Shown: piece by piece, positions 1 to 47,837 of the stretch
Position numbering within the stretch: the first letter of the stretch is position 1
Layout of the letters: each line of letters starts with the position of its first letter
NCBI GenBank assembly: GCA_934096105.1
Contig: CAKOLH010000003.1
Location: 1,721-65,720, forward strand
Direction of reading: 5' to 3'
Origin: an uncultured Bacilli bacterium
Lineage (GTDB): Bacteria > Bacillota_I > Bacilli_A > RF39 > UBA660
DNA: 64,000 bases
Notes under the pieces: generated by a model
Seen by the model: the letters and a program-made list of their open reading frames with translations, nothing else
What the model was told of the DNA's origin: nothing
Database searches by the model: none
Made by a program: the position numbers and the translations under genes

Positions 1-536
1 TTAAACATAGCACTAACCAAATAAGTTTTACCGCATCCAAAATTGCCTGCTAAATATAAGCCCTTACATTTTTCGTTATTTTCATATTTTTTAATAAAAG
101 TTGTAAGCCATTTAATAGCATCGAGTCTCTTCGTATCATCAGTATAAATATTCTTCATTGAAGCCTCAAGAATAGCCTTTGGCATATCAAACAAACTAAT
201 ATTATTTTGATATTCTGTGTCTTTATCAAGTTTCTTCTTATATTTACAAGGTACATAAGAAAATACTATGTTTTCTTCTTGTACTTCAGGATAGTAGACA
301 TGACCAACAACAGAATTTTTACATTCCATAATATTTTTACAATTAGCACAGTTTTTAAGTTCCAAAGAAGAATCTTTAATTAAAGAGGTATATTTCATTA
401 TTTCATCTTTAGGAAGTTTAATTTTACTTACAATCTTTTTAAATGTATCATCTTCCATTTCTTCATCAAAATTTCTCTCTAAATCTATATTATTAAATCT
501 ATAATTATTTTGAATAACATCTTTTATTTCTTTCAT
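1..536 (-). CDS. dnaI: helicase loader DnaI, N-terminal ~178 aa (remainder lies beyond the window start)
   Basis: Not in ORF track because it is open at the window edge. The minus-strand ATG at 536 overlaps the stop of the upstream dnaB-like gene (TAATG). The translation MKEIKDVIQNNYRF... has a Cys-rich N-domain (CANCKN..C) and reaches Walker A GLYLAGNFGCGKTYL near nt 60-15. Confidence 0.75.
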   Translation of the reverse strand, partial: MKEIKDVIQNNYRFNNIDLERNFDEEMEDDTFKKIVSKIKLPKDEIMKYTSLIKDSSLELKNCANCKNIMECKNSVVGHVYYPEVQEENIVFSYVPCKYKKKLDKDTEYQNNISLFDMPKAILEASMKNIYTDDTKRLDAIKWLTTFIKKYENNEKCKGLYLAGNFGCGKTYLVSAMF

Positions 537-1822
537 TATTTATACTCCTTTAATAGTTCTTCTAATTGATTTTCTTCGCCATCAGAAACATTAGATTTAT
601 TTATTTCTTTATCAAACCAATCAGGAGTTTTCATATTAACATTATCTTCTTTATAATTTCTTTTTGAGGATTTTTTATGTACTTTTTCGCAGTTATTCAT
701 TGCATCCTCTACTGTTTCTATACCTTTTCTTTGCCATTCACCAGCAATTGTTTCAACGAATCCTCTTGTTAACTTCTTATTATTTACATTAATTGCATAG
801 TCAAGTAGAACATTAACTACTCCTGGTTTTAATTTATAATCGACAAGTAAATCTTCAATTAATTTTAAATCTCTACGAGTGGGTTCATTACCATTATTTT
901 TATTTATTAAAAGTTCTCTTGGAGAAATAGTTTCAAATGTATATATCATTTTAGCCCTTCTTGAAGTATCACCAATCGGTTTTCTTAAGTATTCAGGTTG
1001 ATTATTATCTATAATTGTAGGAAGTAAACCACCATTGTTAAACTGATAGAAGTTTCTTGAATTTTTTCTTAAACTTTCACGATTAATAGTACCATTGTCA
1101 TTAAGTGAAACTTTAACAATATTAGCCATCTTAATAGCATCAATATCATATATAAATGAAAGATTAATAATAAGTTCCTTAATATCTTTAGAGAACATCT
1201 TACTAGTATCTAGATTCTTTGGCATTGAACTAATAAGAAAATTAAAGTCAAAATTACTATTAATATTAAGTTTAAGTTTATTATACTTTCTAATATCCTC
1301 AAGTGACAAGTCATAAGATGTCATACTAGTACTTTCAAAGACATCATTAAAACTTTTAGTAATATCTTTATAATTAGAGGTATTTAATCTTGGTACTTTA
1401 AATGCTTTAACTAAATTATCATATTCTCTCTTACCAACATTACTATATAAGACAATATTAAGTATTGGATGAGATAAAAATTCACTAGCACTGACAGGAC
1501 TAAAAATTTCATATATATAATTATTAACATTTCCTTCTTTAATAAATGCTTTAATAAGTCCTATAGCCTCAAGTTTATCAAAAGAAGTTTGTAATTCATT
1601 AATAGTTATTCTAAGTGAAGACACTAATTTTTGATGCGAAAACTCACTACTTAATATTTCTGAATTATCCAAATCAGCCCATAAAGTAAAGTATAACATC
1701 ACAGCATCAGTACCAATAATAGGAAGATATAAACTAGTTATAATTTTCCTATCCTCATTATGAAGAATAGTTTTATTTACTACAACATAAGTATCCGCAG
1801 GTACCAAATTATACTTTTCCAT
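536..1822 (-). CDS. dnaB: replication initiation/membrane attachment protein, DnaB(Bsu)/DnaD-domain family
   Basis: 428-aa ORF. The N-terminal YLPIIGTDAVMLYFTLW motif is typical of DnaD/DnaB_2 domains. It lies immediately upstream of, and is translationally coupled to, dnaI, as in the Bacillus dnaB-dnaI operon. Confidence 0.7.
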   Translation of the reverse strand: MEKYNLVPADTYVVVNKTILHNEDRKIITSLYLPIIGTDAVMLYFTLWADLDNSEILSSEFSHQKLVSSLRITINELQTSFDKLEAIGLIKAFIKEGNVNNYIYEIFSPVSASEFLSHPILNIVLYSNVGKREYDNLVKAFKVPRLNTSNYKDITKSFNDVFESTSMTSYDLSLEDIRKYNKLKLNINSNFDFNFLISSMPKNLDTSKMFSKDIKELIINLSFIYDIDAIKMANIVKVSLNDNGTINRESLRKNSRNFYQFNNGGLLPTIIDNNQPEYLRKPIGDTSRRAKMIYTFETISPRELLINKNNGNEPTRRDLKLIEDLLVDYKLKPGVVNVLLDYAINVNNKKLTRGFVETIAGEWQRKGIETVEDAMNNCEKVHKKSSKRNYKEDNVNMKTPDWFDKEINKSNVSDGEENQLEELLKEYK

Positions 1823-2131
1823 AAAACCAATCCTTCCTCAACATTATTGTATAATAAAAAGAGCTAAAAGTAAAGGAAAAATAAATATGTTTTACAGGCC
1901 ATTTTTTACTAAAAAATATCATCAAAATAAATATATTTACATACTTAAGTGTAAAATTTTAAAAAAATTTAATAATAAATTAAAGACAAAAAAAGCCTCA
2001 AAAGAAGATTTTGAATATAATAAGTTTTCCAAAACAAATTTTTAATACAGAAAGCGGCAACAAAACCTTATTTTAAGCCATTTGACCTAGTAACATTTAT
2101 ATGATAATGTACTCATCAGGAGGCAATTAAT

Positions 2132-3037
2132 ATGTTAAACTGTGATTATTATAATGAAATAAAAAACGAACTAATAAATAATGAAGTATATAAAAGAGTA
2201 AAAGATTATTCAAAGAATAGAAATGAACTTAGTACCTATTACAATGTTGGTAAGTTACTAAGTGAGGCAGGAAAACATTATGGTGAAGGAATAATTGAAA
2301 ACTATTCAAAAAATTTAGTTATTGATGTTGGCAAAAAATACAATAAAAGAACACTTTTTAGAATTAAACAATTTTATAATTTAATTGAAAAACAAAAAGT
2401 GTCGCCACTGGCGACACAATTGACATGGTCTCATTATTGTGAATTATTATCCATTAAAGATATAAATGAAATCAATTACTATATAAATATTTCTGAAAAG
2501 CAAAATCTAAGTAAAAGACAACTTAGGGAAAAAATAAAATCTAAAGAATATCAAAGATTAGATGATAATACTAAATTAAAGTTAATAAATAAAGAAGAAA
2601 TAGTAGTAAGTGATTTTATAAAAAATCCTATAATTATAAGAAATAAATATAATGTAGATAAAGAACATATGACAGAAAAAATATTACAAAGATTAATACT
2701 CGAAGATATAGAAAACTTCTTATTAGAGTTAGGAGATGGATTTTCCTTCATTAAAAGTGAATACAAAATTAAAATAGGAAATACCTATAATTATATAGAT
2801 TTATTATTATTTAATTATATTTATAATTGCTTTGTAGTAATAGAACTAAAAGTAACAGAATTAAAAAAAGAACATATTGGCCAAATTGAGGTCTATATGA
2901 ACTATGTAGATAAAAATATTAAAACTATAAATCAAGATAAAACTATTGGAGTAATAATTTGTAAAAAAGATAATGGCTACTATATAGAATACTCCAGTGA
3001 TAGCAGAATCTATCATAAAGAATATATCTTGAACTAA
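2132..3037 (+). CDS. YhcG/DUF1016-type PDDEXK nuclease-domain protein
   Basis: 301-aa ORF with SD aggagg upstream. The C-terminal IDLLLFNYIYNCFVVIELKVTELKKEHIGQIEVYMNYV matches the D..(D/E)xK core pattern of the YhcG family. Confidence 0.65.
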   Translation: MLNCDYYNEIKNELINNEVYKRVKDYSKNRNELSTYYNVGKLLSEAGKHYGEGIIENYSKNLVIDVGKKYNKRTLFRIKQFYNLIEKQKVSPLATQLTWSHYCELLSIKDINEINYYINISEKQNLSKRQLREKIKSKEYQRLDDNTKLKLINKEEIVVSDFIKNPIIIRNKYNVDKEHMTEKILQRLILEDIENFLLELGDGFSFIKSEYKIKIGNTYNYIDLLLFNYIYNCFVVIELKVTELKKEHIGQIEVYMNYVDKNIKTINQDKTIGVIICKKDNGYYIEYSSDSRIYHKEYILN

Positions 3038-3702
3038 TCTTTACAATTTCTAATAATAATAGTGCTAAGAATAACCAGGAAAATACCTATTATCAAGATA
3101 TATAAATTATAACTATTCAAAATATTTACAAAGATGTTCGCAGACATATGAATAACAATAGGTATCAAAATATCTTTCTTTTTTAAATATAAATATGCAT
3201 TAACCATACCAATAATAAAAGCATATATACAAGTAGTAATTCCTGTATGACAGATAGCAAATACCAAAGAGGAAATAAAAATTATCATTTTTTGACTATT
3301 AAATTTTTTCAAACTATTAATAAAACTATACCTAAACAAAGTTTCCTCAAATACAGGCCCCACAATTCCAGATACTATAATATTAAGAAAAATATTTATA
3401 TCCACTGTAACATTATTGCCCAGTCCCATTGCAAACAAAACCATATTGTAACTAGTAGTAATACCAATACCCATTAATACATAAGGGAAAAGATTATGCT
3501 TCCCTATAGGAGGGTTACTTTTCCTAAATTTAAAAATAACATACAAAATTTCAACAATGCAAACAAGTATAGTACCAATTACAATAGACCTATCTTTGCC
3601 CAAGCAAACAATACAAGCAATAAGTACAGCATATTGCAAAACAAACATTATAAATATCTCTTTAAAAGACAAAATAAGCAATTTTAAATATTTCATAAAC
3701 AC
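3034..3702 (-). CDS. CPBP (CAAX-type) intramembrane metalloprotease family protein
   Basis: 222-aa polytopic ORF with FEETLFRY (EExxxR), FAICH and HMSAN motifs characteristic of CPBP/Abi-type proteases. Confidence 0.75.
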   Translation of the reverse strand: MFMKYLKLLILSFKEIFIMFVLQYAVLIACIVCLGKDRSIVIGTILVCIVEILYVIFKFRKSNPPIGKHNLFPYVLMGIGITTSYNMVLFAMGLGNNVTVDINIFLNIIVSGIVGPVFEETLFRYSFINSLKKFNSQKMIIFISSLVFAICHTGITTCIYAFIIGMVNAYLYLKKKDILIPIVIHMSANIFVNILNSYNLYILIIGIFLVILSTIIIRNCKD

Positions 3703-3759
3703 CTCATAATAAAAAATAAGATAGCCATTAAGTACTTCTAAGCTGTCTTATATAATAAT

Positions 3760-3972
3760 TTAAGCCTTTACATTAGTAACTGCTAGAACATTAATTGCTT
3801 GTAATCCTTTAGCAGTTTCGATAAGATCAAATTCAACTATTTGTCCTTCAGATAATGTTTTGTAACCATCTTGTTTAATTGCAGAATAATGAACGAAAAT
3901 ATCTTCACTATTTGGATTGTCAATAAATCCATAGCCTTTGTCGTTATTGAACCACTTAACTCTTCCTTGCAT
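3760..3972 (-). CDS. cold-shock domain protein (CspA family)
   Basis: [17 protein letters not shown]...FVHYSAI RNP motifs. I prefer the ATG at 3972 because the GTG at 3981 in the track lies inside the SD gaggtg. A long upstream untranslated region follows, as is usual for csp genes. Confidence 0.9.
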
Positions 3973-4227
3973 CCTTGCCACCTCACTTTTCTGTTCTTTC
4001 TTACAAGAATATTATAATATACTGCCCGGTGATTTTGCAAACAAATTAGTAAGACAAAAATCGATAAAAAATTCTTCTAAGTTGAACTTTACTGCAAGCA
4101 AGATAATCATAACATCATTTAGGACTATAAAGGTTTAAAAATTGAATTTTAATAGAAAGATGTTCCTACCAACTATATAGTTAACTACAAGTAAATACCC
4201 AAAATAAAAATAAAAAAGTAGATTTCT

Positions 4228-5106
4228 CTACTTAATTTCAATATTCATAATTTCTAATATTCTATTCAAATCATTAACGTTTTCAAAATAAATATTAATT
4301 TTTTTATTATCCACTTTAACTTTGGTACCAAGTATGTCTCTAAGTTCATTTTCTACGTTAGTATAATCGGTATTTCTTTCTCTTCTGGTTATAGGAACTC
4401 TCTTCTTAATTTCCTCGTTTTTACTAATTTCTTCAATTTCATGGACACTAAGACCTTCGTTAATAATTTTTTTAGCTAAATCAGTAATTTTACTATCATC
4501 TTCCATTTTAGACAAAACTCTAGCATGTCCCATAGAAAGTTCTCCATTTAAAATCATTTTTTGAACTTCTTCAGGTAGATTAAGTAGCCCCAAAGTATTG
4601 GTAATATGACTTCTGCTTTTTCCTATTCTAAGAGCAAGATCCTCTTGCCTAATATCCAAGTTATCAATAATTTCCTTATAGGCCCAAGCAAGTTCAATAG
4701 CGGTAAGATTTTCCCTTTGAATATTTTCTAGTAGTGCAATTTCTCTCATTTCGTCATCAGAAAAATCTTTTACAATCGCAGGTATTTTGTCTAATCCTGC
4801 CATTTTACTAGCCCTAAGTCTTCTTTCACCAGCTATTAAATCATAACCACGAATCCCCTTTTTAACAATAATAGGTTGAAATACACCATGGTTTTTAATT
4901 GATTCAGATAATTCTCTTAGAGCCTCCTCATTAAAACTCTTTCTGGGTTGATAAGGATTTGGTCTAATTTCATTAACAGGAATATCTTGAATTTCATTAG
5001 TAGTAGCATTTTCCATTATATTACTTTCAAAAGTATCAAAATCAAGAACCTCTGTTGAAAATAGTTCCTCAAGTCCCCTACCCAACGCTTTCTTCTTTTG
5101 TTCCAT
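4228..5106 (-). CDS. parB: chromosome partitioning protein ParB/Spo0J
   Basis: ALGRGLEELF, PNPYQPRK, IAGERRLRA, LSMGHAR and a C-terminal ..NDLNRILE motif; close in pattern to B. subtilis Spo0J. Confidence 0.9.
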   Translation of the reverse strand: MEQKKKALGRGLEELFSTEVLDFDTFESNIMENATTNEIQDIPVNEIRPNPYQPRKSFNEEALRELSESIKNHGVFQPIIVKKGIRGYDLIAGERRLRASKMAGLDKIPAIVKDFSDDEMREIALLENIQRENLTAIELAWAYKEIIDNLDIRQEDLALRIGKSRSHITNTLGLLNLPEEVQKMILNGELSMGHARVLSKMEDDSKITDLAKKIINEGLSVHEIEEISKNEEIKKRVPITRRERNTDYTNVENELRDILGTKVKVDNKKINIYFENVNDLNRILEIMNIEIK

Positions 5107-5890
5107 TTCTATCTATAACCTCCTTAGCTAAATTTAGATATGCTATAGTACCTTTATTTCTAGGTTCATATTCGAGTATTGGTTTACCATGACTAGGAGC
5201 CTCAGCAAGTCTTACTAGTCTTGGAATAATTGTATCATATACTCTCTCCTTAAAGAATCCTTTAATACTTTCAATGACTTCAACACCCAAATTAGTGTTA
5301 GAAAACATTGTAAGAAGAACTCCCTCAATATCTAAGTTAGGATTAACTTTTCTCTGTGCTAACATAATTGTATTAATAAGTTGCATAATACCTTCAAGAG
5401 CAAAATACTCACACTGAACTGGTATTAAAACAGAGTCAGCAGCAGCTAGTGCATTAGTAGTAAGAATACCAAGAGATGGTGGACAATCAATAAATATAAA
5501 ATCATAATTATCTTTTACCTTAGATAGTTCATCCTTTAATCTTGTTACCCTATTGAATTTAGCCCCAGTTTCTTTAGCCTTTCTTTCTAATTCAATAAGT
5601 TCCATATCTACTCCTGCTAAATTAAGATAAGCAGGAAGCAAAGATAAATTTTTACTTTTAGTTTTTATTATTGAATCAAAAATAGATTTTTTCATAGTAA
5701 GTACTTCATATATACTACTAGATATATCACCTTTATTTATTCCAACTCCAGTAGTAGCATTTCCCTGCGGATCTAAATCTACAAGTAATACTTTTTTATT
5801 TAAAACACCAAGTGAAGCAGCCAAATTAATACTAGTAGTGGTCTTCCCTACTCCACCTTTTTGGTTTACGATTGCTATAATTTTTCCCAT
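5078..5890 (-). CDS. parA: chromosome partitioning ATPase ParA/Soj
   Basis: Deviant Walker A NQKGGVGKTTT and DCPPSLG; overlaps the parB start by 29 nt. Confidence 0.92.
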   Translation of the reverse strand: MGKIIAIVNQKGGVGKTTTSINLAASLGVLNKKVLLVDLDPQGNATTGVGINKGDISSSIYEVLTMKKSIFDSIIKTKSKNLSLLPAYLNLAGVDMELIELERKAKETGAKFNRVTRLKDELSKVKDNYDFIFIDCPPSLGILTTNALAAADSVLIPVQCEYFALEGIMQLINTIMLAQRKVNPNLDIEGVLLTMFSNTNLGVEVIESIKGFFKERVYDTIIPRLVRLAEAPSHGKPILEYEPRNKGTIAYLNLAKEVIDRNGTKEESVG

Positions 5891-5992
5891 ATAATGTCAC
5901 CTTATTTTCCTCAAATATAATTGTATCAAAAAATATCGAAAAAAGGAAGTAGTTTTTTGTATTTATTTCACTTCGTACTTCGTTACTCAGTG

Positions 5993-6020
5993 TTTTCTGA
6001 AGCCTAAGGTCTTCAGAAAA
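5993..6020. repeat. palindromic unit A (ttttctgaag|cctaaggt|cttcagaaaa)
   Basis: Perfect 10-bp arms around the conserved core. It lies between the parA start and the rpmH promoter. A weaker 6-bp hairpin follows at 6023-6041. Confidence 0.85.
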
Positions 6021-6042
6021 ATAATTTTTGTTAGGAAAATTC

Positions 6043-6071
6043 TTGACATAAACGAAATAAAACTATATAAT
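6043..6071 (+). promoter_or_regulatory. sigma-A type promoter of rpmH
   Basis: TTGACA (6043-6048), 17-nt spacer, TATAAT (6066-6071), about 34 nt upstream of the rpmH ATG. Confidence 0.7.
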
Positions 6072-6104
6072 AAAGTAGCATTTGACTTGGAGGTGTATTA
6101 TATA

Positions 6105-6227
6105 ATGAAAAGAACTTATCAACCTAATAACAGAAAAAAAGCTAAAAAGCATGGTTTCTTTGCTAGAATTAAAGGTAATGTTTTAAAAAGTAGAAGAAAT
6201 AAAAAAAGAAAAAAATTATGTGCATAA
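6105..6227 (+). CDS. rpmH: 50S ribosomal protein L34
   Basis: Not in ORF track (40 aa). [40 protein letters not shown] with SD ggaggtg upstream; followed by rnpA. Confidence 0.93.
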
Positions 6228-6265
6228 TTTTGTTTTCTTTTTTATTTTTTTATATCTAATTTAAT

Positions 6266-6589
6266 ATGAAAAAGATAGAAATAATTAAATCATCAAGAGA
6301 ATATACTGAAATAATCAATACTAATATTTGCAGAAGAAGCAAATATTTTAGTATATATTATCGTAAAAATGATGATGAAAATAAATATGGTATTACTATT
6401 CCTAAAAAGACAGGAACAGCAGTAATAAGAAATAAAATAAAGAGAAGGGTAAAAAACATTATTGATAATAATAAAAATATAGTGCAAAAAGGCTATGACT
6501 ATGTTATAATTGTTAAGAAAGGCATAGTGGATTTAACATACCAAGACATGGAAAAAGAATTGTTAAAACTACTAAGTAAGGGTGATTAA
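6266..6589 (+). CDS. rnpA: ribonuclease P protein component
   Basis: 107-aa basic ORF in the conserved rpmH-rnpA-yidC position, with an RNKIKRRVK motif. Confidence 0.85.
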   Translation: MKKIEIIKSSREYTEIINTNICRRSKYFSIYYRKNDDENKYGITIPKKTGTAVIRNKIKRRVKNIIDNNKNIVQKGYDYVIIVKKGIVDLTYQDMEKELLKLLSKGD

Positions 6590-7541
6590 TTTGAAACAAG
6601 AAAAAAAAGCATTTAAAATAGTACTAATTATCCTAAGTTTAGTTATGCTAACAGGATGTACTAAAACATTAACAGGAGAAGATAAAAAAGCTGTAAAATA
6701 TGAAGAAACTGGTAAGACTTTAACTGAAAATATTCTTTGTAAGCCAACAAATAAAGATGTAATAGAAATATACAAAGAAAATAAAGTAGATGTAGATAAA
6801 TTGCCAAATTGTGAAAGCTTCAAACCTTTTTCTGAATACGAAGGGTTATGGACTACAGTATTTGTAAAACCATTAGCTTGGGTAATTATAAATATTGGTG
6901 TGCTTTTAGGTAAAACTGGTTTAAGTAAAGGGTTAGCAAATGGATTTGCAATTATTTTATCTTGCTTAGCAATAAGATTAATATTATATCCATTCACTAG
7001 AAAAACCGCAATGCAATCAGAAAAAATGAAAGAAGTTCAGCCGCAATTAGAAAAATTAGAAAAGAAATATAAAGATAAAACGAGTGAAGAAGATCAAAAG
7101 ATGAAGGCACAAGAAATGATGGTAATTTATCAAAAAAATAAAATAAATCCATTATCAAGTTGCTTACTATCATTCATTCAAATACCATTATTATTTTCAT
7201 TCCTTGAAGCAATAAATAGAACACCAGTAATATTTGAAAATAAATTTTTTAAGTTAGATATGGGAACTACAATATCACATGGAATAATGTCAAAGACATG
7301 GTATCTATATGTACTACTATTTGTTATTATTCTTGCAACATCATATCTATCATTTAGAAAAACATTAAAAGATCAAACTGGAATGGCTAAACAAATGAAA
7401 GGTACAATATATGTTATGCTTGCTATGATAGTAATAGCTTCATTTAGCTTGCCGGTTGCTCTTGGTTTATACTGGATAACATCATCATTATTTACAGTAG
7501 CTCAAAACTTAATTGTAGAAAGAAAGAAGGCAAAGAAGTAA
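6582..7541 (+). CDS. yidC: membrane protein insertase YidC (lipoprotein type)
   Basis: GTG start overlapping the rnpA stop. Lipobox LTGC, multi-pass 60-kDa-IMP-like core and a basic C-terminal tail. Confidence 0.88.
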   Translation: MINLKQEKKAFKIVLIILSLVMLTGCTKTLTGEDKKAVKYEETGKTLTENILCKPTNKDVIEIYKENKVDVDKLPNCESFKPFSEYEGLWTTVFVKPLAWVIINIGVLLGKTGLSKGLANGFAIILSCLAIRLILYPFTRKTAMQSEKMKEVQPQLEKLEKKYKDKTSEEDQKMKAQEMMVIYQKNKINPLSSCLLSFIQIPLLFSFLEAINRTPVIFENKFFKLDMGTTISHGIMSKTWYLYVLLFVIILATSYLSFRKTLKDQTGMAKQMKGTIYVMLAMIVIASFSLPVALGLYWITSSLFTVAQNLIVERKKAKK

Positions 7542-8152
7542 TGAATAAATATTATTTTGAAGGAAAAACAGAGGAACAAGCAATTAATCTTGCATTATAT
7601 GAATTAAATATATCCGAAGAAGATTTAATAGTAAATAATGTTGAGGATAAAAGTAGTTTATTAAAAAAGAATGTTAAAATAGAAGTATTAAAAATAAAAG
7701 AAATAATTTCATTCATCAAAGATACATTAAATAAAATGACTGAATTAATGGGAGCTAAATCAAATCTTGAAGTAAAAAGAAGAGAAAATAGTATTTCAGT
7801 TACAATATTCTCTGAAAACAATGCCATTCTTATTGGTAAGAATGGTAAGAATGTCGCTGCTCTTCAGTTACTAATAAGACAAATGGTAAACTCAAAGTTA
7901 AAAGAACCATTATCAATCATTATTGATGTTGGAAATTATAAAGAAAAAAGAGCAAGAAGTATCGAGTACTTAGCTAAAAAATTAGCAAGAGAGGCATACA
8001 AAACAAAAACAGAAGTAACTATGGATAGTATGAATTCTTATGAAAGAAGAATAGTACATGAAGCTTTAGCTAATGACAAATATGTTTATACAGAATCAAT
8101 TGGTGAAGAGCCAAATAGAAAAGTAGTAATTAAATTAAAAGAAAGTAAATAA
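7541..8152 (+). CDS. jag: Jag/SpoIIIJ-associated RNA-binding protein (KH + R3H)
   Basis: 203 aa with GKNGKNVAALQ (KH) and ERRIVHEAL (R3H); start overlaps the yidC stop. Confidence 0.88.
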   Translation: MNKYYFEGKTEEQAINLALYELNISEEDLIVNNVEDKSSLLKKNVKIEVLKIKEIISFIKDTLNKMTELMGAKSNLEVKRRENSISVTIFSENNAILIGKNGKNVAALQLLIRQMVNSKLKEPLSIIIDVGNYKEKRARSIEYLAKKLAREAYKTKTEVTMDSMNSYERRIVHEALANDKYVYTESIGEEPNRKVVIKLKESK

Positions 8153-8207: not shown

Positions 8208-9047
8208 GTGGAGATGGTTACTATTAATAAAGAATTATATACATTAGCGGCTAAAAATGGTTTTGATTTAAGTAAGATTGGGGTAATGCCAGAAAGTAAG
8301 TTATACTCTTCCAAAAATATAAACAGAATAATATTTTCTTATGGTATTAGTAAAGCATCAGATAAAACCGATATGTCAATTGGAGATATTATAGGTTATG
8401 ATTACGAATGGCGAATAGGCACTACAGATGTAAATATATTATCGGGGTTTGAAAATTATTTTAATAAAGAAGGAACAAATTACCAAAACAGAAGCATAGG
8501 AATGCTTGATTATAGCAGCGATGAAGTGATAAAACAATTATGGAAAAGTTTTAGTAAAGAACCAATAACAGTAAGAGAGGCCGATGAAGGTAAGTTTATC
8601 ATAGATAATAATGGCTTACATAGATACACAATACTAAGATTACATTATTTAAATGAACTATCAAAAGCAAGTACCGAAGAAGAAAAACAACAAGTAAAAG
8701 CAAAATATACAATACCAGTAGAAAGAAAAACCATTGATTATGTAAAAACATATTGTAATTACTTATTAGATTATTTTTTTGATATTAGTTTATCACTAGA
8801 AGTAGATGAAAATTATAGATATACAGGAAAATCAACTATACATATAGATAAAAAAACTATATTAATGGATGATAATGAATTAATAAGATTCGTAAGAGAA
8901 AGTTTAACTAATTTACCTACTCAATACTTAAGTGACATAAATGAAGCGATACTAAAAAATAACTGTCAAAAATATCCGAGTTTTCAAAAGTTTATCCAAG
9001 ATAACTTAAGTGATATCCTTGAAGCAAACAAAGGGAGGAGTATATAA
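8208..9047 (+). CDS. hypothetical protein with ParB/Srx-like N-domain motif
   Basis: 279-aa ORF. PITVREADEGKFIIDNNGLHRYTILR resembles the ParB-like nuclease-domain DGxHR core. The rest is unrecognised. The start codon is ambiguous (GTG 8208 or ATG 8214). Confidence 0.45.
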   Translation: MEMVTINKELYTLAAKNGFDLSKIGVMPESKLYSSKNINRIIFSYGISKASDKTDMSIGDIIGYDYEWRIGTTDVNILSGFENYFNKEGTNYQNRSIGMLDYSSDEVIKQLWKSFSKEPITVREADEGKFIIDNNGLHRYTILRLHYLNELSKASTEEEKQQVKAKYTIPVERKTIDYVKTYCNYLLDYFFDISLSLEVDENYRYTGKSTIHIDKKTILMDDNELIRFVRESLTNLPTQYLSDINEAILKNNCQKYPSFQKFIQDNLSDILEANKGRSI

Positions 9048-15281: not shown

Positions 15282-15815
15282 TTGAAAATAATAACAATAA
15301 TTTTAATTGCAATAAGCCTATCAATGGATGCTTTTTCTTTGGCCTTAATATATGGTACACAGCCCATAACCAAAAGAGGAAAAATATTACTATCTATAAT
15401 TGTAGGACTATACCATTTTATAATGCCCCTAATAGGATTAAGCATAGGTCTGTTTGTTACAAATAAAATAATAATAAATACCAACGTCCTAGTGGGTATA
15501 ATCTTGTCATTAATAGCCATCGAGATGATAATATCAAGTTTTAAAGAAAAAGAAGAAAAATTTCTTCTAAGTATTCCGGGATATTTATTGTTTGGATTAT
15601 CGGTAAGTATTGATAGTTTAACTACAGGAATAGGTTTCCCAGCAATAACAGATAAATATGTAATATCTGCTTTAATATTTTCCATAACAAGTTTATTATT
15701 TACATTTTTAGGATTAAATTTAGGAAATATATTAAATAAAAAATATGGTAAAATATCCACTATAATAGGAGGAATGATTCTTTTGATAATTGGCATATTA
15801 TATATATTTAAATAG
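15282..15815 (+). CDS. mntP: manganese efflux pump MntP
   Basis: TTG start; 177-aa six-TM protein with the SMDAFS motif. Confidence 0.8.
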   Translation: MKIITIILIAISLSMDAFSLALIYGTQPITKRGKILLSIIVGLYHFIMPLIGLSIGLFVTNKIIINTNVLVGIILSLIAIEMIISSFKEKEEKFLLSIPGYLLFGLSVSIDSLTTGIGFPAITDKYVISALIFSITSLLFTFLGLNLGNILNKKYGKISTIIGGMILLIIGILYIFK

Positions 15816-20310: not shown

Positions 20311-21042
20311 GTGGAAGAAATGATTAAGTTTGTAATTTGTGAAGATAGTGATGAAGCATTAGAAACTGCTAGCAAATATGTAGTAAAAGCATTAATGAAT
20401 TATGATATTGAATATAAAATATTAAAATTTAATGAGTATAATAATAAGTTTAAAAAGGTAATGAATGATGATACTGATATAAAGATATATATTCTAGATA
20501 TAGAATTACCAACAATAAGTGGGTTAGAAATAGCATCTGAAATAAGAGAGATAGATGATGAAAGTACAATAATATTTGTTACTGCCCATTCAGAATGTAA
20601 AAATGATATATTCTATTCACGACTTGGTGCAATAGATTTTATATCAAAATATAATAGATATGAAGAAAGACTTGCTGAAACAATAATTTATGTAATAGAC
20701 AATATGTATAAGAAAAAAGTATTAAGCTTTACATATAATCAAGTTCAAACAAAACTTAGATATAAAGAAATAAACTTTATAGAGAAAGCAACATCTCAGA
20801 ATAAATGTATAATACACGAAGTAAGTGGAGAGCAAAAATATATAACCACATCTATAATAAAACTAAAAAGTAAATTAAAGCCAATGTTCTATCAAACTCA
20901 TAAGTCATGCCTTGTTAACTTAGATAATGTTAGAGAAGTAGACTATTCAACATCCACAATATATTTTAAAAATGGAGAGACAACAAATCTAATTTCACCA
21001 GCATCAAGAAAGGGATTGAAGAAATATGTTGGAGAGTTTTAA
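20311..21042 (+). CDS. agrA: LytTR-family response regulator (AgrA-like)
   Basis: REC domain (ILDIELP) plus a C-terminal LytTR domain (..HKSCLVNLDNV..). The stop overlaps the kinase gene start. Confidence 0.75.
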   Translation: MEEMIKFVICEDSDEALETASKYVVKALMNYDIEYKILKFNEYNNKFKKVMNDDTDIKIYILDIELPTISGLEIASEIREIDDESTIIFVTAHSECKNDIFYSRLGAIDFISKYNRYEERLAETIIYVIDNMYKKKVLSFTYNQVQTKLRYKEINFIEKATSQNKCIIHEVSGEQKYITTSIIKLKSKLKPMFYQTHKSCLVNLDNVREVDYSTSTIYFKNGETTNLISPASRKGLKKYVGEF

Positions 21043-22342
21043 ACTATTATTAAGTAGTACATTATTAATATTAACCATTTACATTTTTGGAAGAATAATT
21101 ATAGTAAATCGTAGACATAAAAAAATAATAATAGACATATTAATATTATTAGGCTTTATATTGTTAAATATTCTTGTATTTAAATACACAAAAGGTACAA
21201 TAAAAACCATAACTACATGTTTTCTATATGCATTACTATTGTTTTCACTATTTAAGATCAAATTAAGCAAATCAATCTTCACTTCAATAGTTTATATAAT
21301 TATGTCTGTTATACCAGATTTAATAGTAACACTTGGAGTAATATTAATTGTTGGAAAAGAATATTTTTATGAAAAACTTGCTGGTAGCATGTTAAGTAAT
21401 ATATTAGTTTGTGTATTAATTATAGTTATAACAGTTATTTTGAAGAAATTACTAAGAAAACTGATAAATTACAAATTATCTGAGAGCAAAAAAATTGTTG
21501 TTATATCAATATTAGCAATTATTTTTACTGCCACATTCTTTTATAAGTTTGCAACGGGTTATAAATTAAATCAAAATGTATTATTATATTTGATTGCTAT
21601 GTTTGCTTTTATAATTATACTATTTACATTATTTAAACAAAGGATGGATAATGAAAATGTATCTAAAAAGTATGATGAACTACTTGATGTAATGAAAAAT
21701 TATGAAAATGATATTGAAGAACAAAGAACATTAAGACATGAAACTAAAAATGAGTTTGCAACAATTAAATGTAAGATACAAGATAAAGAAGATGATAAGT
21801 CTATAATTGAATATATAGATAGTGTCATTGGTGATAAATGCAAAGCCAGTAGTACAAAATATTCTAAATTTAAGTATTTGCCATCAAATGGTTTAAAAGG
21901 CTTCTTCTATTATAAATTTATCGAAGCTGAAAAGAAGGAAATAAATGTATCAGTAAACATATCTAAGCAAATTGAAAATTCGTTTCTAAAAGATATTGAT
22001 ACCAAAGATTTTAAAGATTTAGTCAGAATTATTGGTGTTTACTTAGATAATGCTATTGAAGCTAGTTCTTCATCAAAAGATAAAAAACTTGGAATAGAAA
22101 TGTATTTAATTAAAGAAAAGATAGAAATAATTATTACAAATACTTTTAATAATGAAATTAATCTAGATAAATTAGGTAAAGAATCATTTAGTACTAAAGG
22201 CAAAAATAGAGGACATGGATTATTATTAGTAAAGAAAATATTAAGCGAAAATGATATATTTGAAGCTAAAAATGAAGTAAGAGGTAATATTTATATTCAA
22301 ACTTTAAAAATAAATAATAATAAAAAGAATTATGATGAATAG
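21026..22342 (+). CDS. agrC: AgrC-type (HPK10) sensor histidine kinase
   Basis: Six or seven TM segments, H-box TLRHETKNEF, N-box LDNAIEA and G-box NRGHGLLL. Confidence 0.75.
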   Translation: MLESFKLLLSSTLLILTIYIFGRIIIVNRRHKKIIIDILILLGFILLNILVFKYTKGTIKTITTCFLYALLLFSLFKIKLSKSIFTSIVYIIMSVIPDLIVTLGVILIVGKEYFYEKLAGSMLSNILVCVLIIVITVILKKLLRKLINYKLSESKKIVVISILAIIFTATFFYKFATGYKLNQNVLLYLIAMFAFIIILFTLFKQRMDNENVSKKYDELLDVMKNYENDIEEQRTLRHETKNEFATIKCKIQDKEDDKSIIEYIDSVIGDKCKASSTKYSKFKYLPSNGLKGFFYYKFIEAEKKEINVSVNISKQIENSFLKDIDTKDFKDLVRIIGVYLDNAIEASSSSKDKKLGIEMYLIKEKIEIIITNTFNNEINLDKLGKESFSTKGKNRGHGLLLVKKILSENDIFEAKNEVRGNIYIQTLKINNNKKNYDE

Positions 22343-22370
22343 TCATAGTTCTTTTCATAAGTTGTAAATG

Positions 22371-22484
22371 CTATTTGATTAAAGACTTTGGCATTTTAGG
22401 CTCATCAGCAAGCCATATCCAACAAGCTTTAGAACCAGTTGAAGCAGCTAAAGAACCAATCCAAGATAAAAATGATGCAAACAT
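22371..22484 (-). CDS. agrD: autoinducing peptide precursor AgrD (37 aa)
   Basis: Not in ORF track. SD taaggaggt lies 7 nt upstream. The peptide MFASFLSWIGSLAASTGSKACWIWLADEPKMPKSLIK has an amphipathic leader, then Cys plus 4 residues (CWIWL), then an acidic EP-x-x-PK tail as in clostridial AgrD. It lies 35 nt downstream of agrB. Confidence 0.8.
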   Translation of the reverse strand: MFASFLSWIGSLAASTGSKACWIWLADEPKMPKSLIK

Positions 22485-22519
22485 AATACTACATACCTCC
22501 TTATTTATATTTTTCCATA

Positions 22520-23128
22520 TTAACTATAAGACTCATTATATGTTTTATAGTTGTTATATGGTAAATGAAACATCCTATAAGTTAATGGATGTATCATTAA
22601 CATTGAATCCAAAAGCCCCAAACTTAAAGCAGTACTAATATTACTATCTTTTAATACAATAATCATTATTAAGAATATTGAACTATTAATAACTGTTATA
22701 ATCTTATAAATTTTTCTTTTTTTTACATTAACTAAAGGTCTTTTATATGTATCAGCAGGAGCATAAATAACTAGAAATATATAAGATATAGCTCCAATAA
22801 ATGCTTTAACATAAAAACTAATATTTACATATTTAAATAGCAGTGCTCCACCAATGAAGAGAGTAATTGATATTATGTAGCATTGCCAACTTTCTTTAGC
22901 ATGCATGCCAAATGCAGTGGTTCTGATAACATTATATAGTATCATAATGATTATCATTTCTTTAAATACTTTCAGAAGCAAAGCAATCAAAGAAATAACA
23001 ATAGTTTTAGTAATCATAATATATAGAGATTCCAGACCATATTCTATAATTTCAAGTCTATCATCATCATAATTAGGATATTTAATTTTGATAGACTTTA
23101 TGGTATTTTCTAAAAATTTCTTTCTCAT
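22520..23128 (-). CDS. agrB: AgrB-family AgrD-processing membrane peptidase
   Basis: 202-aa polytopic ORF. The N-terminal region with the ..TTAFGMHA.. (His) context is typical of AgrB, and it lies immediately upstream of agrD. Confidence 0.8.
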   Translation of the reverse strand: MRKKFLENTIKSIKIKYPNYDDDRLEIIEYGLESLYIMITKTIVISLIALLLKVFKEMIIIMILYNVIRTTAFGMHAKESWQCYIISITLFIGGALLFKYVNISFYVKAFIGAISYIFLVIYAPADTYKRPLVNVKKRKIYKIITVINSSIFLIMIIVLKDSNISTALSLGLLDSMLMIHPLTYRMFHLPYNNYKTYNESYS

Positions 23129-33261: not shown

Positions 33262-33314
33262 CCTCCTGAGCCTAAGGTCTCAAGAGGCTTGATAGAGCCT
33301 AAGTCTCTATCAAG
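33262..33314. repeat. palindromic units B1+B2 (cctcctgag|cctaaggt|ctcaagagg ; cttgatagag|cctaagt|ctctatcaag)
   Basis: Two abutting units 19 nt after the htrA stop, with no T-run. B1 has one C/A mismatch on the + strand, which is a G-U/G-T wobble on the - strand. Confidence 0.85.
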
Positions 33315-41898: not shown

Positions 41899-41963
41899 AA
41901 TCTACAAATAACCGAATGAAAATCCCACAAATAATCGAATGAAAAATCTACAAATAACCGAAT
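41899..41963 (+). repeat. three iteron-like direct repeats
   Basis: Core tctacaaataaccgaat at 41901-41917 and 41947-41963 (identical), and tcccacaaataatcgaat at 41923-41940. Each is preceded by an A-run, with periods of 22 and 24 bp. The array ends 5 nt before a TTGATT-17-TATAAT promoter (41969-41997). Confidence 0.8.
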
Positions 41964-43380: not shown

Positions 43381-43466
43381 CTGGCTTATATATAATAGAT
43401 ATGTAGATATATCATTTATAGACTACAGGCTATAAATGACACACTATAGACCCAGGCTATAGTGTG
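43381..43466. repeat. 21-nt leader plus palindromic units D1+D2 (opposite orientation to A, B, C and E)
   Basis: Leader ctggcttatatataatagata, then tcatttatag|actacagg|ctataaatga and cacactatag|acccagg|ctatagtgtg. It lies 87 nt before the pcrA start. Confidence 0.85.
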
Positions 43467-43552
43467 AATAAAATAAAAAAATATTCTTATCTTTACTTCA
43501 CTATATTATCAAAATATGATAAAATGAAGTAAAGAAAGATGAGGTAGACAAG

Positions 43553-45634
43553 ATGAAAGTTTTAGAATTAAATAAGAATCAGCAAGAAGCTGTTAATCAT
43601 ATAAATGGACCAATGTTAGTACTCGCAGGAGCAGGTTCAGGAAAGACCAAAGTACTAACTAGTAGAATAGCAAATTTAATAGAAAATGGAATAAGTCCAT
43701 ATAACATATTAGCAATAACCTTTACTAATAAAGCCGCTAAAGAAATGAAAGATAGAGTAGTATCTCTAATAGGAAGTACTGCCAATAATATACAAATATC
43801 AACATTTCACTCTTTAGGACTTAGAATACTAAAAGAAAACTATAGCCTATTAGGCTATGAAAGAAACTTTACTATCATAGATAGTGATGATGTCTTAACT
43901 ATTATTAAAAAAATAATGAAAGATCTAAATATGAGTAAAGAATACTATAATCCTAGAGAAATAAAGAATAAAATAAGTTCTGCTAAAAACGAAATGATGG
44001 ATGTAGAAAAATTCTCTAAAATAGAATTTGATCATAAGGTAGTAGAAGTATATAAAACATATCAAAAAAAATTAAAACAAGGAAATTCTGTAGACTTCGA
44101 CGATTTATTAATATTACCAATAAAACTATTTAAGAACTATCCAAATGTCTTAAATGACTATCAAGAAAGATATAAATATATATTAATAGATGAATATCAA
44201 GATACAAATGAAGCTCAATATACCTTCAGTAGACTACTATCATCTAAATATCGTAATATCTTTGTAGTAGGAGATAATGACCAAGCCATATATGCCTTCC
44301 GTGGAGCCAATTATAAAAACATCTTAAACTTTGAAAAAGACTATCCCGAAGCAAAAACAATATTACTTGAAGAAAACTATCGTTCTACTAAAAACATCTT
44401 AAATGCCGCTAATAGCGTTATAAAAAATAATAGAGAAAGAAAAGATAAAAATCTATGGAGTAATAACGAAGAAGGAGATAAAATAAAATATAAAAAAGTA
44501 TCAACCGAAAAAGAAGAAGCTTCCTTTGTCGTAGGAGAAATAAAAGATTTAATATCAAAAGGTATTAAAGAAGAAGCTATAGCGGTCCTATATCGAACCA
44601 ATGCTCAGTCAAGAACTATTGAAGAGGAATTACTAAAAAAGAATATCAAATATAGAGTAGTAGGAAGTTTCTATTTCTATAATAGAAAAGAAATAAAAGA
44701 TTTATTATGTTATCTAAGATTAATAAATAATCATAAAGATGATGTAAGTTTGCTTAGAATAATCAATACTCCAAAAAGAGGAATTGGTGAAAAAACAATT
44801 GATAACCTAACCTCGTTAGCAGAAGATGCCGGTATTTCTATCTATGAAGCCATTACTACAGGTAAAGAATTAACTTTTAAAGAACTAATCGAAGAACTAA
44901 CTAAAGATAGTGAGAAAATGTCACTTACTGAATTAGTTGATGACATTCTAGATAAAAGCGGTATAAGAAAAGAATTAGAAAGTTCTAAATTACTCGAAGA
45001 TGAAATAAGACTAGAAAACTTAAACGAATTTAAAGGAGTTACCAAGAGTTATGAAGAAGAATATGGTTCAGCAAGCCTAGAGGACTTTCTTGAAGAAATA
45101 TCCCTAGTTAGTGATATAACCGAACATCAAGATAGTGATGGAAGAGTAAGTTTAATGACCGTTCACTCTGTAAAAGGACTAGAATTTGATTATGTCTTTA
45201 TCGTTGGCATGGAAGAAGGAATATTCCCACATTACAACGCTATCAATGATGGAAGCAATTCCGCTATTGAAGAAGAACGTAGACTATGCTATGTAGCCAT
45301 TACCAGAGCCAAGAAAAAACTCTATATAACATCTGCTGATACTCGTATGTTATTTGGAAATACCAGTAGAAATATGCCAAGTAGATTTATAAATGAAATA
45401 GATAAAGAATATATTGAAGTAGAAGGAATAAAACCCCTTACTAAGATGGTATCAAATATCAAGAAAAAGATTGATAAAAATGCTGAATACACCGTAGGAG
45501 AACATATTGTTCATACTGAGTTTGGCGAAGGTGTCGTAATAGGAGTAGATAAATCAATCCTAACCGTAGCCTTTCCACATCCAACAGGTATAAGAAAGCT
45601 TATGAAAGGTCATCCAAATATCAAGAAAATATAA
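43553..45634 (+). CDS. pcrA: ATP-dependent DNA helicase PcrA
   Basis: UvrD/PcrA motifs AGAGSGKT, DEYQDTN, VGDNDQAIY.FRGA and VHSVKGLEF; 693 aa. Confidence 0.95.
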   Translation: MKVLELNKNQQEAVNHINGPMLVLAGAGSGKTKVLTSRIANLIENGISPYNILAITFTNKAAKEMKDRVVSLIGSTANNIQISTFHSLGLRILKENYSLLGYERNFTIIDSDDVLTIIKKIMKDLNMSKEYYNPREIKNKISSAKNEMMDVEKFSKIEFDHKVVEVYKTYQKKLKQGNSVDFDDLLILPIKLFKNYPNVLNDYQERYKYILIDEYQDTNEAQYTFSRLLSSKYRNIFVVGDNDQAIYAFRGANYKNILNFEKDYPEAKTILLEENYRSTKNILNAANSVIKNNRERKDKNLWSNNEEGDKIKYKKVSTEKEEASFVVGEIKDLISKGIKEEAIAVLYRTNAQSRTIEEELLKKNIKYRVVGSFYFYNRKEIKDLLCYLRLINNHKDDVSLLRIINTPKRGIGEKTIDNLTSLAEDAGISIYEAITTGKELTFKELIEELTKDSEKMSLTELVDDILDKSGIRKELESSKLLEDEIRLENLNEFKGVTKSYEEEYGSASLEDFLEEISLVSDITEHQDSDGRVSLMTVHSVKGLEFDYVFIVGMEEGIFPHYNAINDGSNSAIEEERRLCYVAITRAKKKLYITSADTRMLFGNTSRNMPSRFINEIDKEYIEVEGIKPLTKMVSNIKKKIDKNAEYTVGEHIVHTEFGEGVVIGVDKSILTVAFPHPTGIRKLMKGHPNIKKI

Positions 45635-47536: not shown

Positions 47537-47576
47537 ATTCTCTTTCAGTTTCGTCTCACACTAAAGTAGTTCGCCG

Positions 47577-47631
47577 TTTTCTAATGCCTAAGGTCATTAG
47601 AAAATATTTTTGAGCCTATAGTCTCAAAAAT
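47577..47631. repeat. palindromic units E1+E2
   Basis: ttttctaatg|cctaaggt|cattagaaaa ; atttttgag|cctatagt|ctcaaaaat. E1 is clearly homologous to unit A. Confidence 0.88.
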
Positions 47632-47673
47632 AATAATTTATAAAATAATTGCCAAAATAAAAGTATATAATTA

Positions 47674-47758
47674 CTGACTTATATATAATAGATACCACTG
47701 GTATATTGTTGTTAGACTATAGGCTAACAACAACACTTCAAGACCTAGACTTGAAGTG
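47674..47758. repeat. 21-nt leader plus palindromic units F1+F2 (same orientation as D)
   Basis: Leader ctgacttatatataatagata (20/21 identical to the D leader), then ttgttgttag|actatagg|ctaacaacaa and cacttcaag|acctaga|cttgaagtg. Confidence 0.85.
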
Positions 47759-47780: not shown

Positions 47781-47837
47781 TTGACATAATATACTAATAG
47801 TGATATTATTTAAATATATGAATATATATTCATATAT
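47781..47837 (+). promoter_or_regulatory. cad operon promoter and ArsR/SmtB-type operator
   Basis: TTGACA (47781-86), 17 nt, tgaTATTAT (47801-09), followed by a perfect 24-bp palindrome atatatgaatat|atattcatatat (47814-47837) containing TGAA-N6-TTCA. Confidence 0.7.

Follow-up and report, generated by a model that had tools for sequence, protein, structure and literature searches.

REP/BIME elements and REPINs are short palindromes between genes, and their hosts are Proteobacteria with RAYT transposases. Compensatory changes have been reported to be common in REPIN hairpins (PMC3116915), and REP-like families without terminal tags are known (PMC3733652). In E. coli, REPs have been described as usually transcribed (PMC12306157). 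The hairpins analyzed here come from a stretch of 64,000 nucleotides (contig CAKOLH010000003.1 of assembly GCA_934096105.1, hereafter the window) with a G+C content of 27%, belonging to an uncultured gut Bacilli lineage that is represented by metagenomes only. Like REP/BIME elements and REPINs, these hairpins are imperfect palindromes of ~28 nt between genes, in which one base close to the top is left unpaired; they are abundant in the window (~12 per 64 kb), lie past gene ends, are clustered in both orientations, are kept at orthologous sites, show compensatory stem changes and mark rearrangement hotspots. Unlike classical REPs, which have a long consensus, the window copies have in common an architecture and ~8 bases (AGCC...GTCT), and their hairpins abut in tandem instead of forming regularly spaced alternating units. 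No conserved tetranucleotide such as the GTAG or CGTC tag was detected at either stem foot of the units, and no RAYT was found in the scanned loci of this low-GC Bacilli host. The best reading is a REP-like family of extragenic palindromes, with the REP/BIME class as its closest known kind.

Several other described systems share part of this design. Integron attC sites, too, keep a fold with some unpaired bases rather than a sequence, and they border promiscuous cargo genes. However, the units are 28 nt long while attC sites measure 57-141 nt, the cargo genes here have their own promoters, and the breakpoints are at the tip and not at the base. The attC boxes R''-L''...L'-R' (RYYYAAC / GTTRRRY) are absent from the stem bases of the units, which vary, and no intI integrase, attI site or Pc promoter was found beside the units in the loci scanned. 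Rho-independent terminators are also stem-loops 3' of genes, and T-rich runs follow units A and E1, but the units differ from terminators in their fixed stem length, conserved top, occurrence in both orientations and the separate ordinary terminator upstream of them. In a terminator consensus scan only A passed, while the B, C and D units and E3-E4 have no T-run. Firmicutes modular repeats (pneumococcal BOX A-Bn-C, bcr1 and others) have a likeness of build with the modules here, which are composed of a box, one to three hairpins and a motif. Finally, the Streptococcus pyogenes small RNA SSRC8 (Rfam RF02616), detected by Northern blot (PMC3675131), contains the hairpin AUUUUUGAG-A-CC-CUA-GG-CUCAAAAAU, with the same stem as unit E2 and the same top (unpaired A, then CC/GG), but the similarity is sub-threshold (18 bits against 72) and limited to one hairpin.

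Architecture and inventory of the hairpin units

Twelve units of 25-32 nt were identified in the window (A, B1, B2, C1-C3, D1, D2 and E1-E4). Each has a lower stem of 10 bp (9 in some) of unrelated sequence ending in AG/CT, and a loop that starts with CC (rarely TC) and ends with GT. The top of the stem carries an unpaired T or a conserved C.T mismatch, then a C-G pair and a free loop, which gives the motif AGCC...GTCT (4+4 nt). Long-loop variants in relatives have an extended upper stem (CCAATA...TATTGT), and the general form is stem(10) - C.T - C-G(+n) - loop. The 12 window stems have a median of 4-5 of 10 positions in common, the only invariant positions being G10, C12, G17, T18 and C19. 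Most strong hairpins in the window, taken from an unbiased list of perfect hairpins, are units of this family. When a covariance model of 23 distinct units was run unfiltered, its significant matches were exactly the 12 units, all in the proper orientation. Clusters are formed by tandem, abutting units in both orientations. DNA folding confirmed the abutting tandem hairpins, at z-scores between -4 and -9 and, for each clustered unit, energies of roughly -7 to -8 kcal/mol.

Unit B1 (33262-33287, plus strand; CCTCCTGAG CCTAAGGT CTCAAGAGG) has a 9-bp stem with one C/A mismatch and has orthologs in the related contigs L002, L004 and L086; it abuts B2 (33288-33314, plus strand; CTTGATAGAG CCTAAGT CTCTATCAAG), which was found in the hairpin list and by the covariance model, as was E2 (47605-47632, plus strand; TATTTTTGAG CCTATAGT CTCAAAAATA). 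C1 (41787-41813, plus strand; CAGTCCGAG CCTAAGGT CTCGGGACTG), recognized by folding and by the covariance model, contains one bulged base in its stem. The hairpin list, folding and the covariance model all recovered C2 (41814-41844, plus strand; CTATAGAAAG CCTTAATAAGT CTTTCTATAG), which has an extra upper stem CTT/AAG and a stem without variation across 8 contigs, and C3 (41845-41876, plus strand; AAAATCAGAG CCTATTAGTAGT CTCTGATTTT). The same three sources gave the minus-strand units D1 (43412-43439; TCATTTATAG ACTACAGG CTATAAATGA on the plus strand), D2 (43440-43466; 'CAC' type, CACACTATAG ACCCAGG CTATAGTGTG), E3 (47706-47733; TTGTTGTTAG ACTATAGG CTAACAACAA on the plus strand) and E4 (47734-47758; 'CAC' type with a 9-bp stem, CACTTCAAG ACCTAGA CTTGAAGTG). 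A conserved motif, CTTATATATAATAGATA..GATATA (43385-43411, plus strand), precedes the minus-oriented pair D1-D2 and is also found before E3-E4 (47678-47705, plus strand; CTTATATATAATAGATACCACTGGTATA) and before three pairs in L006. Two truncated units are present in the window, at 6021-6030 and at 57802-57818 (plus strand). The latter retains the left arm and loop (ACTACTTAAG CCTAAGT), while unrelated DNA stands in place of the right arm; L004 has an intact ortholog.

Every one of the 12 window units falls between genes, as do all units in the relatives. Modules lie either 2-4 nt past the T-run of an upstream terminator or inside divergent promoter regions, the latter being the case for unit A and for the H module of L002 and L004, and their orientation is mixed relative to neighboring genes and to the inferred direction of replication.

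Other identities were considered and rejected. A CRISPR or tandem array does not fit, as stems differ between units and the repeat-spacer build is absent. Xer/dif-like 28-bp sites were excluded because the variable part of the units is the arms and not the centre. An invertible promoter flanked by inverted repeats at E2/E3 was rejected, the loops there being identical in the window but different in relatives. The conserved TATATAATAGATA motif was dismissed as a sigma-70 promoter, its -35-like elements being poor or wrongly spaced as judged by eye. Ordinary terminators were discarded as well: non-clade relatives have only classic ones at these places, and most units have no T-run. For known RNA families, Rfam searched at the gathering score over the whole window returned nothing, and the E-value mode returned only a sub-threshold match to one RF02616 hairpin. 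For a phage origin, two viral-contig scans gave chance matches in unrelated, mostly high-GC contigs with no family hairpins among them. BLAST searches of the E1-E2 module and of the SSRC8 hairpin consensus against plasmids and phages obtained nothing meaningful, and a literature search for the core sequence obtained only primers and unrelated matches.

Unit A (5993-6020, plus strand; TTTTCTGAAG CCTAAGGT CTTCAGAAAA, flanking g at 5992) has a perfect 10-bp stem and is located in the spacer of 216 nt between parA and rpmH, with a consensus rpmH promoter downstream of it. It scored 39.1 bits in the covariance model (E = 2.8e-7), its DNA fold alone reached -8.9 kcal/mol (z = -6.0), and L086 carries an identical copy. 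Unit E1 (47577-47604, plus strand; TTTTCTAATG CCTAAGGT CATTAGAAAA, flanking g at 47576) has the same stem in 9 contigs (PcrA 82-100% identical to that of the window), while L002 and L004 have TTTTCTAGAG/CTCTAGAAAA. According to the original prediction, the two units are homologous, and their two fully compensated arm substitutions are direct evidence for maintained pairing. The sequence facts were verified: the loop CCTAAGGT, the flanking g and the 3' ATTTTTG are common to both units, and the arms differ at stem positions 7 (G-C in A, A-T in E1) and 9 (A-T in A, T-A in E1), both differences being mirrored in the opposite arm. The argument from two compensated changes out of two is circular, however, and by itself uninformative: between two perfect palindromes such as A and E1, every difference must look compensated.

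The homology of A and E1 was examined from their surroundings. Their arm identity (8 of 10) is the highest of the 66 window pairs, which is not significant alone, and direct pairwise comparison of their flanks gave no significant similarity (P = 0.6). The ATTTTTG that follows E1 is the left arm of E2; after A, it belongs to a truncated copy of such an arm (6021-6030, plus strand), an E2-like second hairpin of which only the left arm ATAATTTTTG is present, and the sequence to the right of this arm differs between the window and L086. In an alignment of 10 modules, a conserved box TTCRCACTTYGTTGYTCACTG precedes the first hairpin of A/E1-type modules; it lies just 5' of this hairpin in the parA modules of L087 and L088, in the vanY module (E1) and in L094 after the amidase gene. 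The box of the E1-E2 module is at 47552-47576 (plus strand; CGTCTCACACTAAAGTAGTTCGCCG; module alignment and box profile), and a weak copy occurs before A at 5966-5992 (plus strand; TTTCACTTCGTACTTCGTTACTCAGTG). A box profile built without A matched weakly at 5970-5989, in the correct register at the foot of A. This was the second-best non-training match in the whole window, with a roughly estimated chance of ~1e-3 for that place. The claimed homology is plausible. It has on its side the common loop, the T-rich first stem, the weak box in register and the E2-type left arm after both units, and against it the pairwise flank comparison. Given the box match at the foot of A and the arm ATAATTTTTG behind it, we hold with moderate confidence that A and E1 would be members of one module type.

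The region around A has some further characteristics. The GC skew changes sign at ~6000, between the divergent parA-parB (parA on the minus strand) and rpmH-rnpA-yidC-jag-mnmE-mnmG-rsmG (plus strand). Neither a dnaA or dnaN gene nor any DnaA box was visible in the 216 nt that separate parA from rpmH (window 1-6100), and a DnaD/DnaB_2-type gene was found at 536-1822. The contigs of many relatives end in this spacer.

Lineage restriction and evolution of the stems

Syntenic loci were collected via PcrA and ParA homologues. The units are confined to the closest lineage, that is, to contigs with PcrA at least 82% identical to that of the window or found via ParA 91-97% identical to it, and their positions are kept at orthologous sites across contigs with PcrA 82-100% identical. 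The census of perfect hairpins counted 85 family hairpins in 319 kb of the clade (266 per Mb) versus one in 1.51 Mb of other low-GC loci, and the covariance model obtained 72 matches in clade loci versus none in the others. The stem length of the family hairpins in the clade is exactly 10 bp in 60 and 9 bp in 23 of the 85, while other hairpins there are spread over 9 to 14 bp. Within the close contigs L005, L090 and L095, no units were found in the stretch examined. More distant relatives have at the same sites only ordinary AAAA-stem-TTTT terminators with variable stem length.

Stem changes were tallied between orthologs, using 18 groups (180 stem pairs) of units from 13 related contigs. In 8 of the 180 pairs both sides had changed with Watson-Crick pairing restored, and 9 pairs varied without compensation. 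Independent placement of the variable sites would produce 0.83 compensated pairs (P ~3e-6), and pairings slid by 1-3 positions produced none. The proposed comparison of compensated with uncompensated arm changes came out at 8 against 9 pairs in these groups, far above the expectation of 0.83 and the slid control of 0. The tally is biased to a smaller degree than the family-level figures given next, as units were detected at >=7/10 pairs and badly decayed copies could be hidden, while the slid-pairing control is unaffected. At the family level, 96% of the cells pair and 148 cells changed on both sides, versus 46 in shuffles; these family-level figures are the more biased, the units having been chosen partly by pairing. 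Mean pairwise divergence was ~1.3% for stems, 3.6% for other intergenic DNA, 4% for coding DNA and 9% for loop interiors, and the stems are regarded as constrained since their divergence is one third of that of the neighboring intergenic DNA. In the closest pair of contigs (L002 and L004), 0 of 99 stem positions and 3 of 18 loop-interior positions differ. The original prediction stated that base pairing and not arm sequence is maintained; ortholog compensation bears out the pairing, but arm sequence is conserved between orthologs too, as in the E1 stem. In L091 a T.C mismatch occupies a pair that is G-C in L006, and the nine uncompensated states, this one included, argue that stems change step by step and against a palindrome regenerated at a single stroke.

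The original prediction also held that the folded strand is the one showing the core as AC..AGG, from a single mismatch in B1. This internal C/A mismatch on the plus strand was verified, but the strand assignment drawn from it did not survive. G.U accounts for 3 of 440 cells (0.7%) and is no commoner than other mismatches. In the ortholog sample, wobble falls on the CC..GT strand in two cases (B1 in L086; D2 in L091-93) and on the AC..GG strand in two others (B1 in the window; E3 in L096), and seven further non-Watson-Crick states are wobble on neither strand. This 2 to 2 split provides no sign of the strand bias of wobble-type mismatches that had been proposed as a check.

Loop interiors were compared separately. 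Differences were located at window positions 47720-47721, 47746, 43453 and 47592 against L091-L093, and at L002 positions 5335, 14039 and 21071 against L004; in the latter comparison the 3 differences among 18 positions contrast with 1.6% for the surrounding DNA. With two deletion-distorted sites set aside, all loop substitutions in these two comparisons are transitions (A<->G, T<->C), while comparisons inside the L094 group revealed transversions and small indels too. These patterns in the letters suggest that exposed single-stranded loops may be a mutational hotspot.

Cargo and breakpoints at the modules

Variable cargo lies between inverted modules at three hotspots, namely amidase-PcrA, vanY-arsR and parA-rpmH. 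At amidase-PcrA, the window has C1-C3, a DUF4143 ATPase gene and D1-D2, whereas in L091 (~4600-7870), L093, L094 and L127 the site is taken by a DpnII-type restriction-modification operon, which encodes an endonuclease and two methylases; L092 is empty, and L002 and L004 have no modules. Direct repeats of ~200 bp border this operon, and they take in C1-C3 as well as the terminator and 3' end of the amidase gene. The interval from E1-E2 to E3-E4 is 73 nt in the window and 570 nt in L091, and contains a 388-aa gene in L093. Between parA and rpmH, L086, L087 and L088 each have an unknown gene of their own, and L090 has an IS66 transposase. Empty sites (L092; the 73-nt E interval of the window) and filled sites have the same module borders.

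Six rearrangement breakpoints were mapped to arm/loop junctions: after A, at window position 57818, in module I of L087, in D1 of L092, and in E2 of L093 and of L091. In L093 the cargo sits between the two arms of E2, and in L091 E2 is chimeric, with the left arm of one allele and the right arm of another. L094 shows a precise loss of E3-E4. Two near-identical modules in L087 (~6940-7004 and ~8855-8950) point to recent duplication within one genome. As the contigs derive from metagenomes, assembly artefacts could account for some of the chimeric junctions.

Small features accompany several of these sites. At ~57820-58320 the window has an insertion of ~400 nt relative to L002 and L004, replacing the right half of a hairpin unit; it includes an ORF (58071-58148) for a 25-aa hydrophobic peptide with a basic tail (MELVLALAWITLVVLFLIDSHSRRR) and a type I toxin-like look, and a comparable small hydrophobic ORF (MSKKDFLIFFQTMTIFLLIILLFKTFN) was identified between hairpin modules in L094. 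Directly behind C3 and ahead of the cargo gene, a sequence (YCYACAAATAAYCGAAT) is repeated three times in direct orientation with a period of 23 nt (41901-41963), with four copies in L091 and one at the empty site of L092; by their layout they may be an iteron-like or operator-like protein-binding array. In the E spacer of L093 (~15400-15640), an insertion of ~230 nt is bounded by copies of AAATAATTGC and carries a terminator-like hairpin, and may be a small mobile element.

Explanations of the family

The explanation that we consider somewhat better than an even chance is that A and E1 are diverged copies of one module type in a lineage-restricted, REP-like family of extragenic palindromes. 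A module of this type would consist of box, first hairpin and second hairpin. A single strand would fold into 10 (sometimes 9) Watson-Crick pairs of nearly free sequence ending in A-G, above which would stand the conserved C.T mismatch (A.G on the other strand), a C-G pair with or without a few more, and an unconstrained apical loop. Purifying selection would keep the stem length, the pairing and the 4+4-nt top AGCC...GTCT, and a change in a stem pair would pass through a mismatched intermediate before compensation. This stepwise course is proposed because of uncompensated intermediates such as the T.C in L091 where L006 has G-C. The conserved top may be the contact point of a structure-specific protein. 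With G.U as rare as other mismatches and neither strand favored, a constraint on DNA, as hairpins or cruciforms, or on both strands would be more likely than one on a single RNA. Exposed tips may be fragile and recombination-prone, which would account for the fast loop interiors, the breakpoints at arm/loop junctions and the modules bordering cargo. No REP-associated or IS200-type transposase and no integrase was found among the window ORFs scanned with Pfam, and the gene tables of eight related loci (~155 kb) listed no RAYT and only one transposase, the IS66. Tyrosine recombinases were absent from the scanned window ORFs, from the gene tables of the related loci and from the ten cargo ORFs scanned.

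A different possibility, which we regard as unlikely although it is the strongest of the rivals, is that the units act as RNA, either as 3'-end structures of read-through transcripts (such as back-up terminators, insulators or exonuclease blocks) or as 5' hairpins of small RNAs. In the small-RNA version, transcription in the AC..GG direction would yield the hairpin, then a conserved tail (the reverse complement of the box) and then the bidirectional terminator of the upstream gene. The units lie directly past terminators, T-rich runs follow both E1 and A, and A was called terminator-like, but most units have no U-tract. Read in reverse, several modules have a TATAAT-like box upstream, a conserved tail, and a hairpin with U-run before the parA promoter; the promoter-like boxes, however, have -35/-10 spacings of 7-14 nt and not 17. 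On the minus strand, E2-E1 matches the RF02616 hairpin AUUUUUGAGACCCUAGGCUCAAAAAU below threshold (18.4 bits against a gathering score of 72), while no Rfam family reached its gathering score in the window. Against an RNA, G.U makes up 0.7% of cells without exceeding other mismatches, and a strand bias is absent. The modules also stand in both orientations relative to neighboring genes and inferred replication direction, and A and the H module of L002 and L004 are in divergent promoter regions.

Two further explanations were considered. One takes the hairpin tops as sites where a structure-specific recombinase or nuclease cuts at the tip, with cassette exchange between left-type and right-type modules, and we consider it improbable. 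Variable cargo between inverted modules at three hotspots, empty and filled sites with the same borders, the L093 cargo between E2 arms and the L091 E2 arms from two alleles are all in its favor, as is the attC-like conservation of structure and short motif rather than sequence. However, no recombinase gene was found near any module, many units are stable at conserved sites, and recombination at the loop would join non-complementary arms and destroy the hairpin. Breakage at palindrome tips is moreover a general property, SbcCD being known to cleave hairpins, and the direct repeats of ~200 bp around the restriction-modification cassette make ordinary homologous recombination enough for it; together with the general fragility of hairpin tips, homologous recombination is enough for the rearrangements seen. 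To a fuller form of this explanation we give the same low probability: an undescribed structure-specific DNA enzyme would recognize the 10-bp stem together with the AGCC/GTCT mismatch and cut the tip, and in a chromosomal cassette-exchange system defence and accessory genes would be swapped between 'landing pads' with left-type and right-type hairpin modules at their borders. Such a system would be integron-like in logic but have other sites and another recombinase. In the other explanation there is no selection on pairing, and perfect stems are regenerated by intrastrand template switching, in which replication uses one arm as the template for the other. Perfect hairpins and compensatory changes are documented to arise by template switching (PMC8794818), pairing here is almost purely Watson-Crick with virtually no G.U, and compensated changes are often adjacent and near the loop (E1 positions 8 and 9; positions 6 and 7 of CAC-type stems). 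Yet this process would symmetrise the top, where C.T and AGCC/GTCT are asymmetric in all units, and it fits poorly with stems three times less diverged than adjacent intergenic DNA, with the persistence of nine uncompensated intermediates and with a stem length fixed at 10 bp. We judge it very unlikely.

If the REP-like family is real, this uncultured gut Bacilli lineage would have hundreds of small hairpins per genome, and they would be a clean natural case of selection on nucleic-acid structure outside genes, with shape, stem length and an 8-base motif retained and the stem sequence nearly free. The near absence of G.U would point to DNA more than to RNA as the folded molecule, and a protein reading the conserved top would be a new structure-specific nucleic-acid binder. 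The units mark sites where restriction-modification systems, ATPases and unknown small genes are gained and lost; they could serve to flag variable islands in metagenome-assembled genomes, where they could also be a reason for contig breaks.

Additional features were observed elsewhere in the window. An agr-like quorum-sensing cluster is present at 20311-23128, with a LytTR response regulator, a GHKL histidine kinase and, on the opposite strand, AgrB. A gene for a Mini-III-type RNase (60656-61027; RNase III domain only, 123 aa) adjoins the genes of a sigma factor and a SpoU methylase. The preferred sequence of Bacillus Mini-III in double-stranded RNA is ACCU, which the ACCTTAGG version of the loop contains, and a Mini-III link is a candidate lead. 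Inside pcrA, positions 45241-45341 gave a sub-threshold Rfam match to RF03531 (35 bits against 65, E = 0.0055), a Clostridioides difficile small RNA annotated inside a helicase gene, and the match probably reflects conserved coding sequence. The pcrA leader contains a 10-bp inverted repeat with a 24-nt loop (43491-43534; CTTTACTTCA...TGAAGTAAAG). Just upstream of the arsR-type regulator, a perfect 24-bp palindrome (47814-47837; ATATATGAATATATATTCATATAT) is probably, from its sequence and place, the operator of that regulator.
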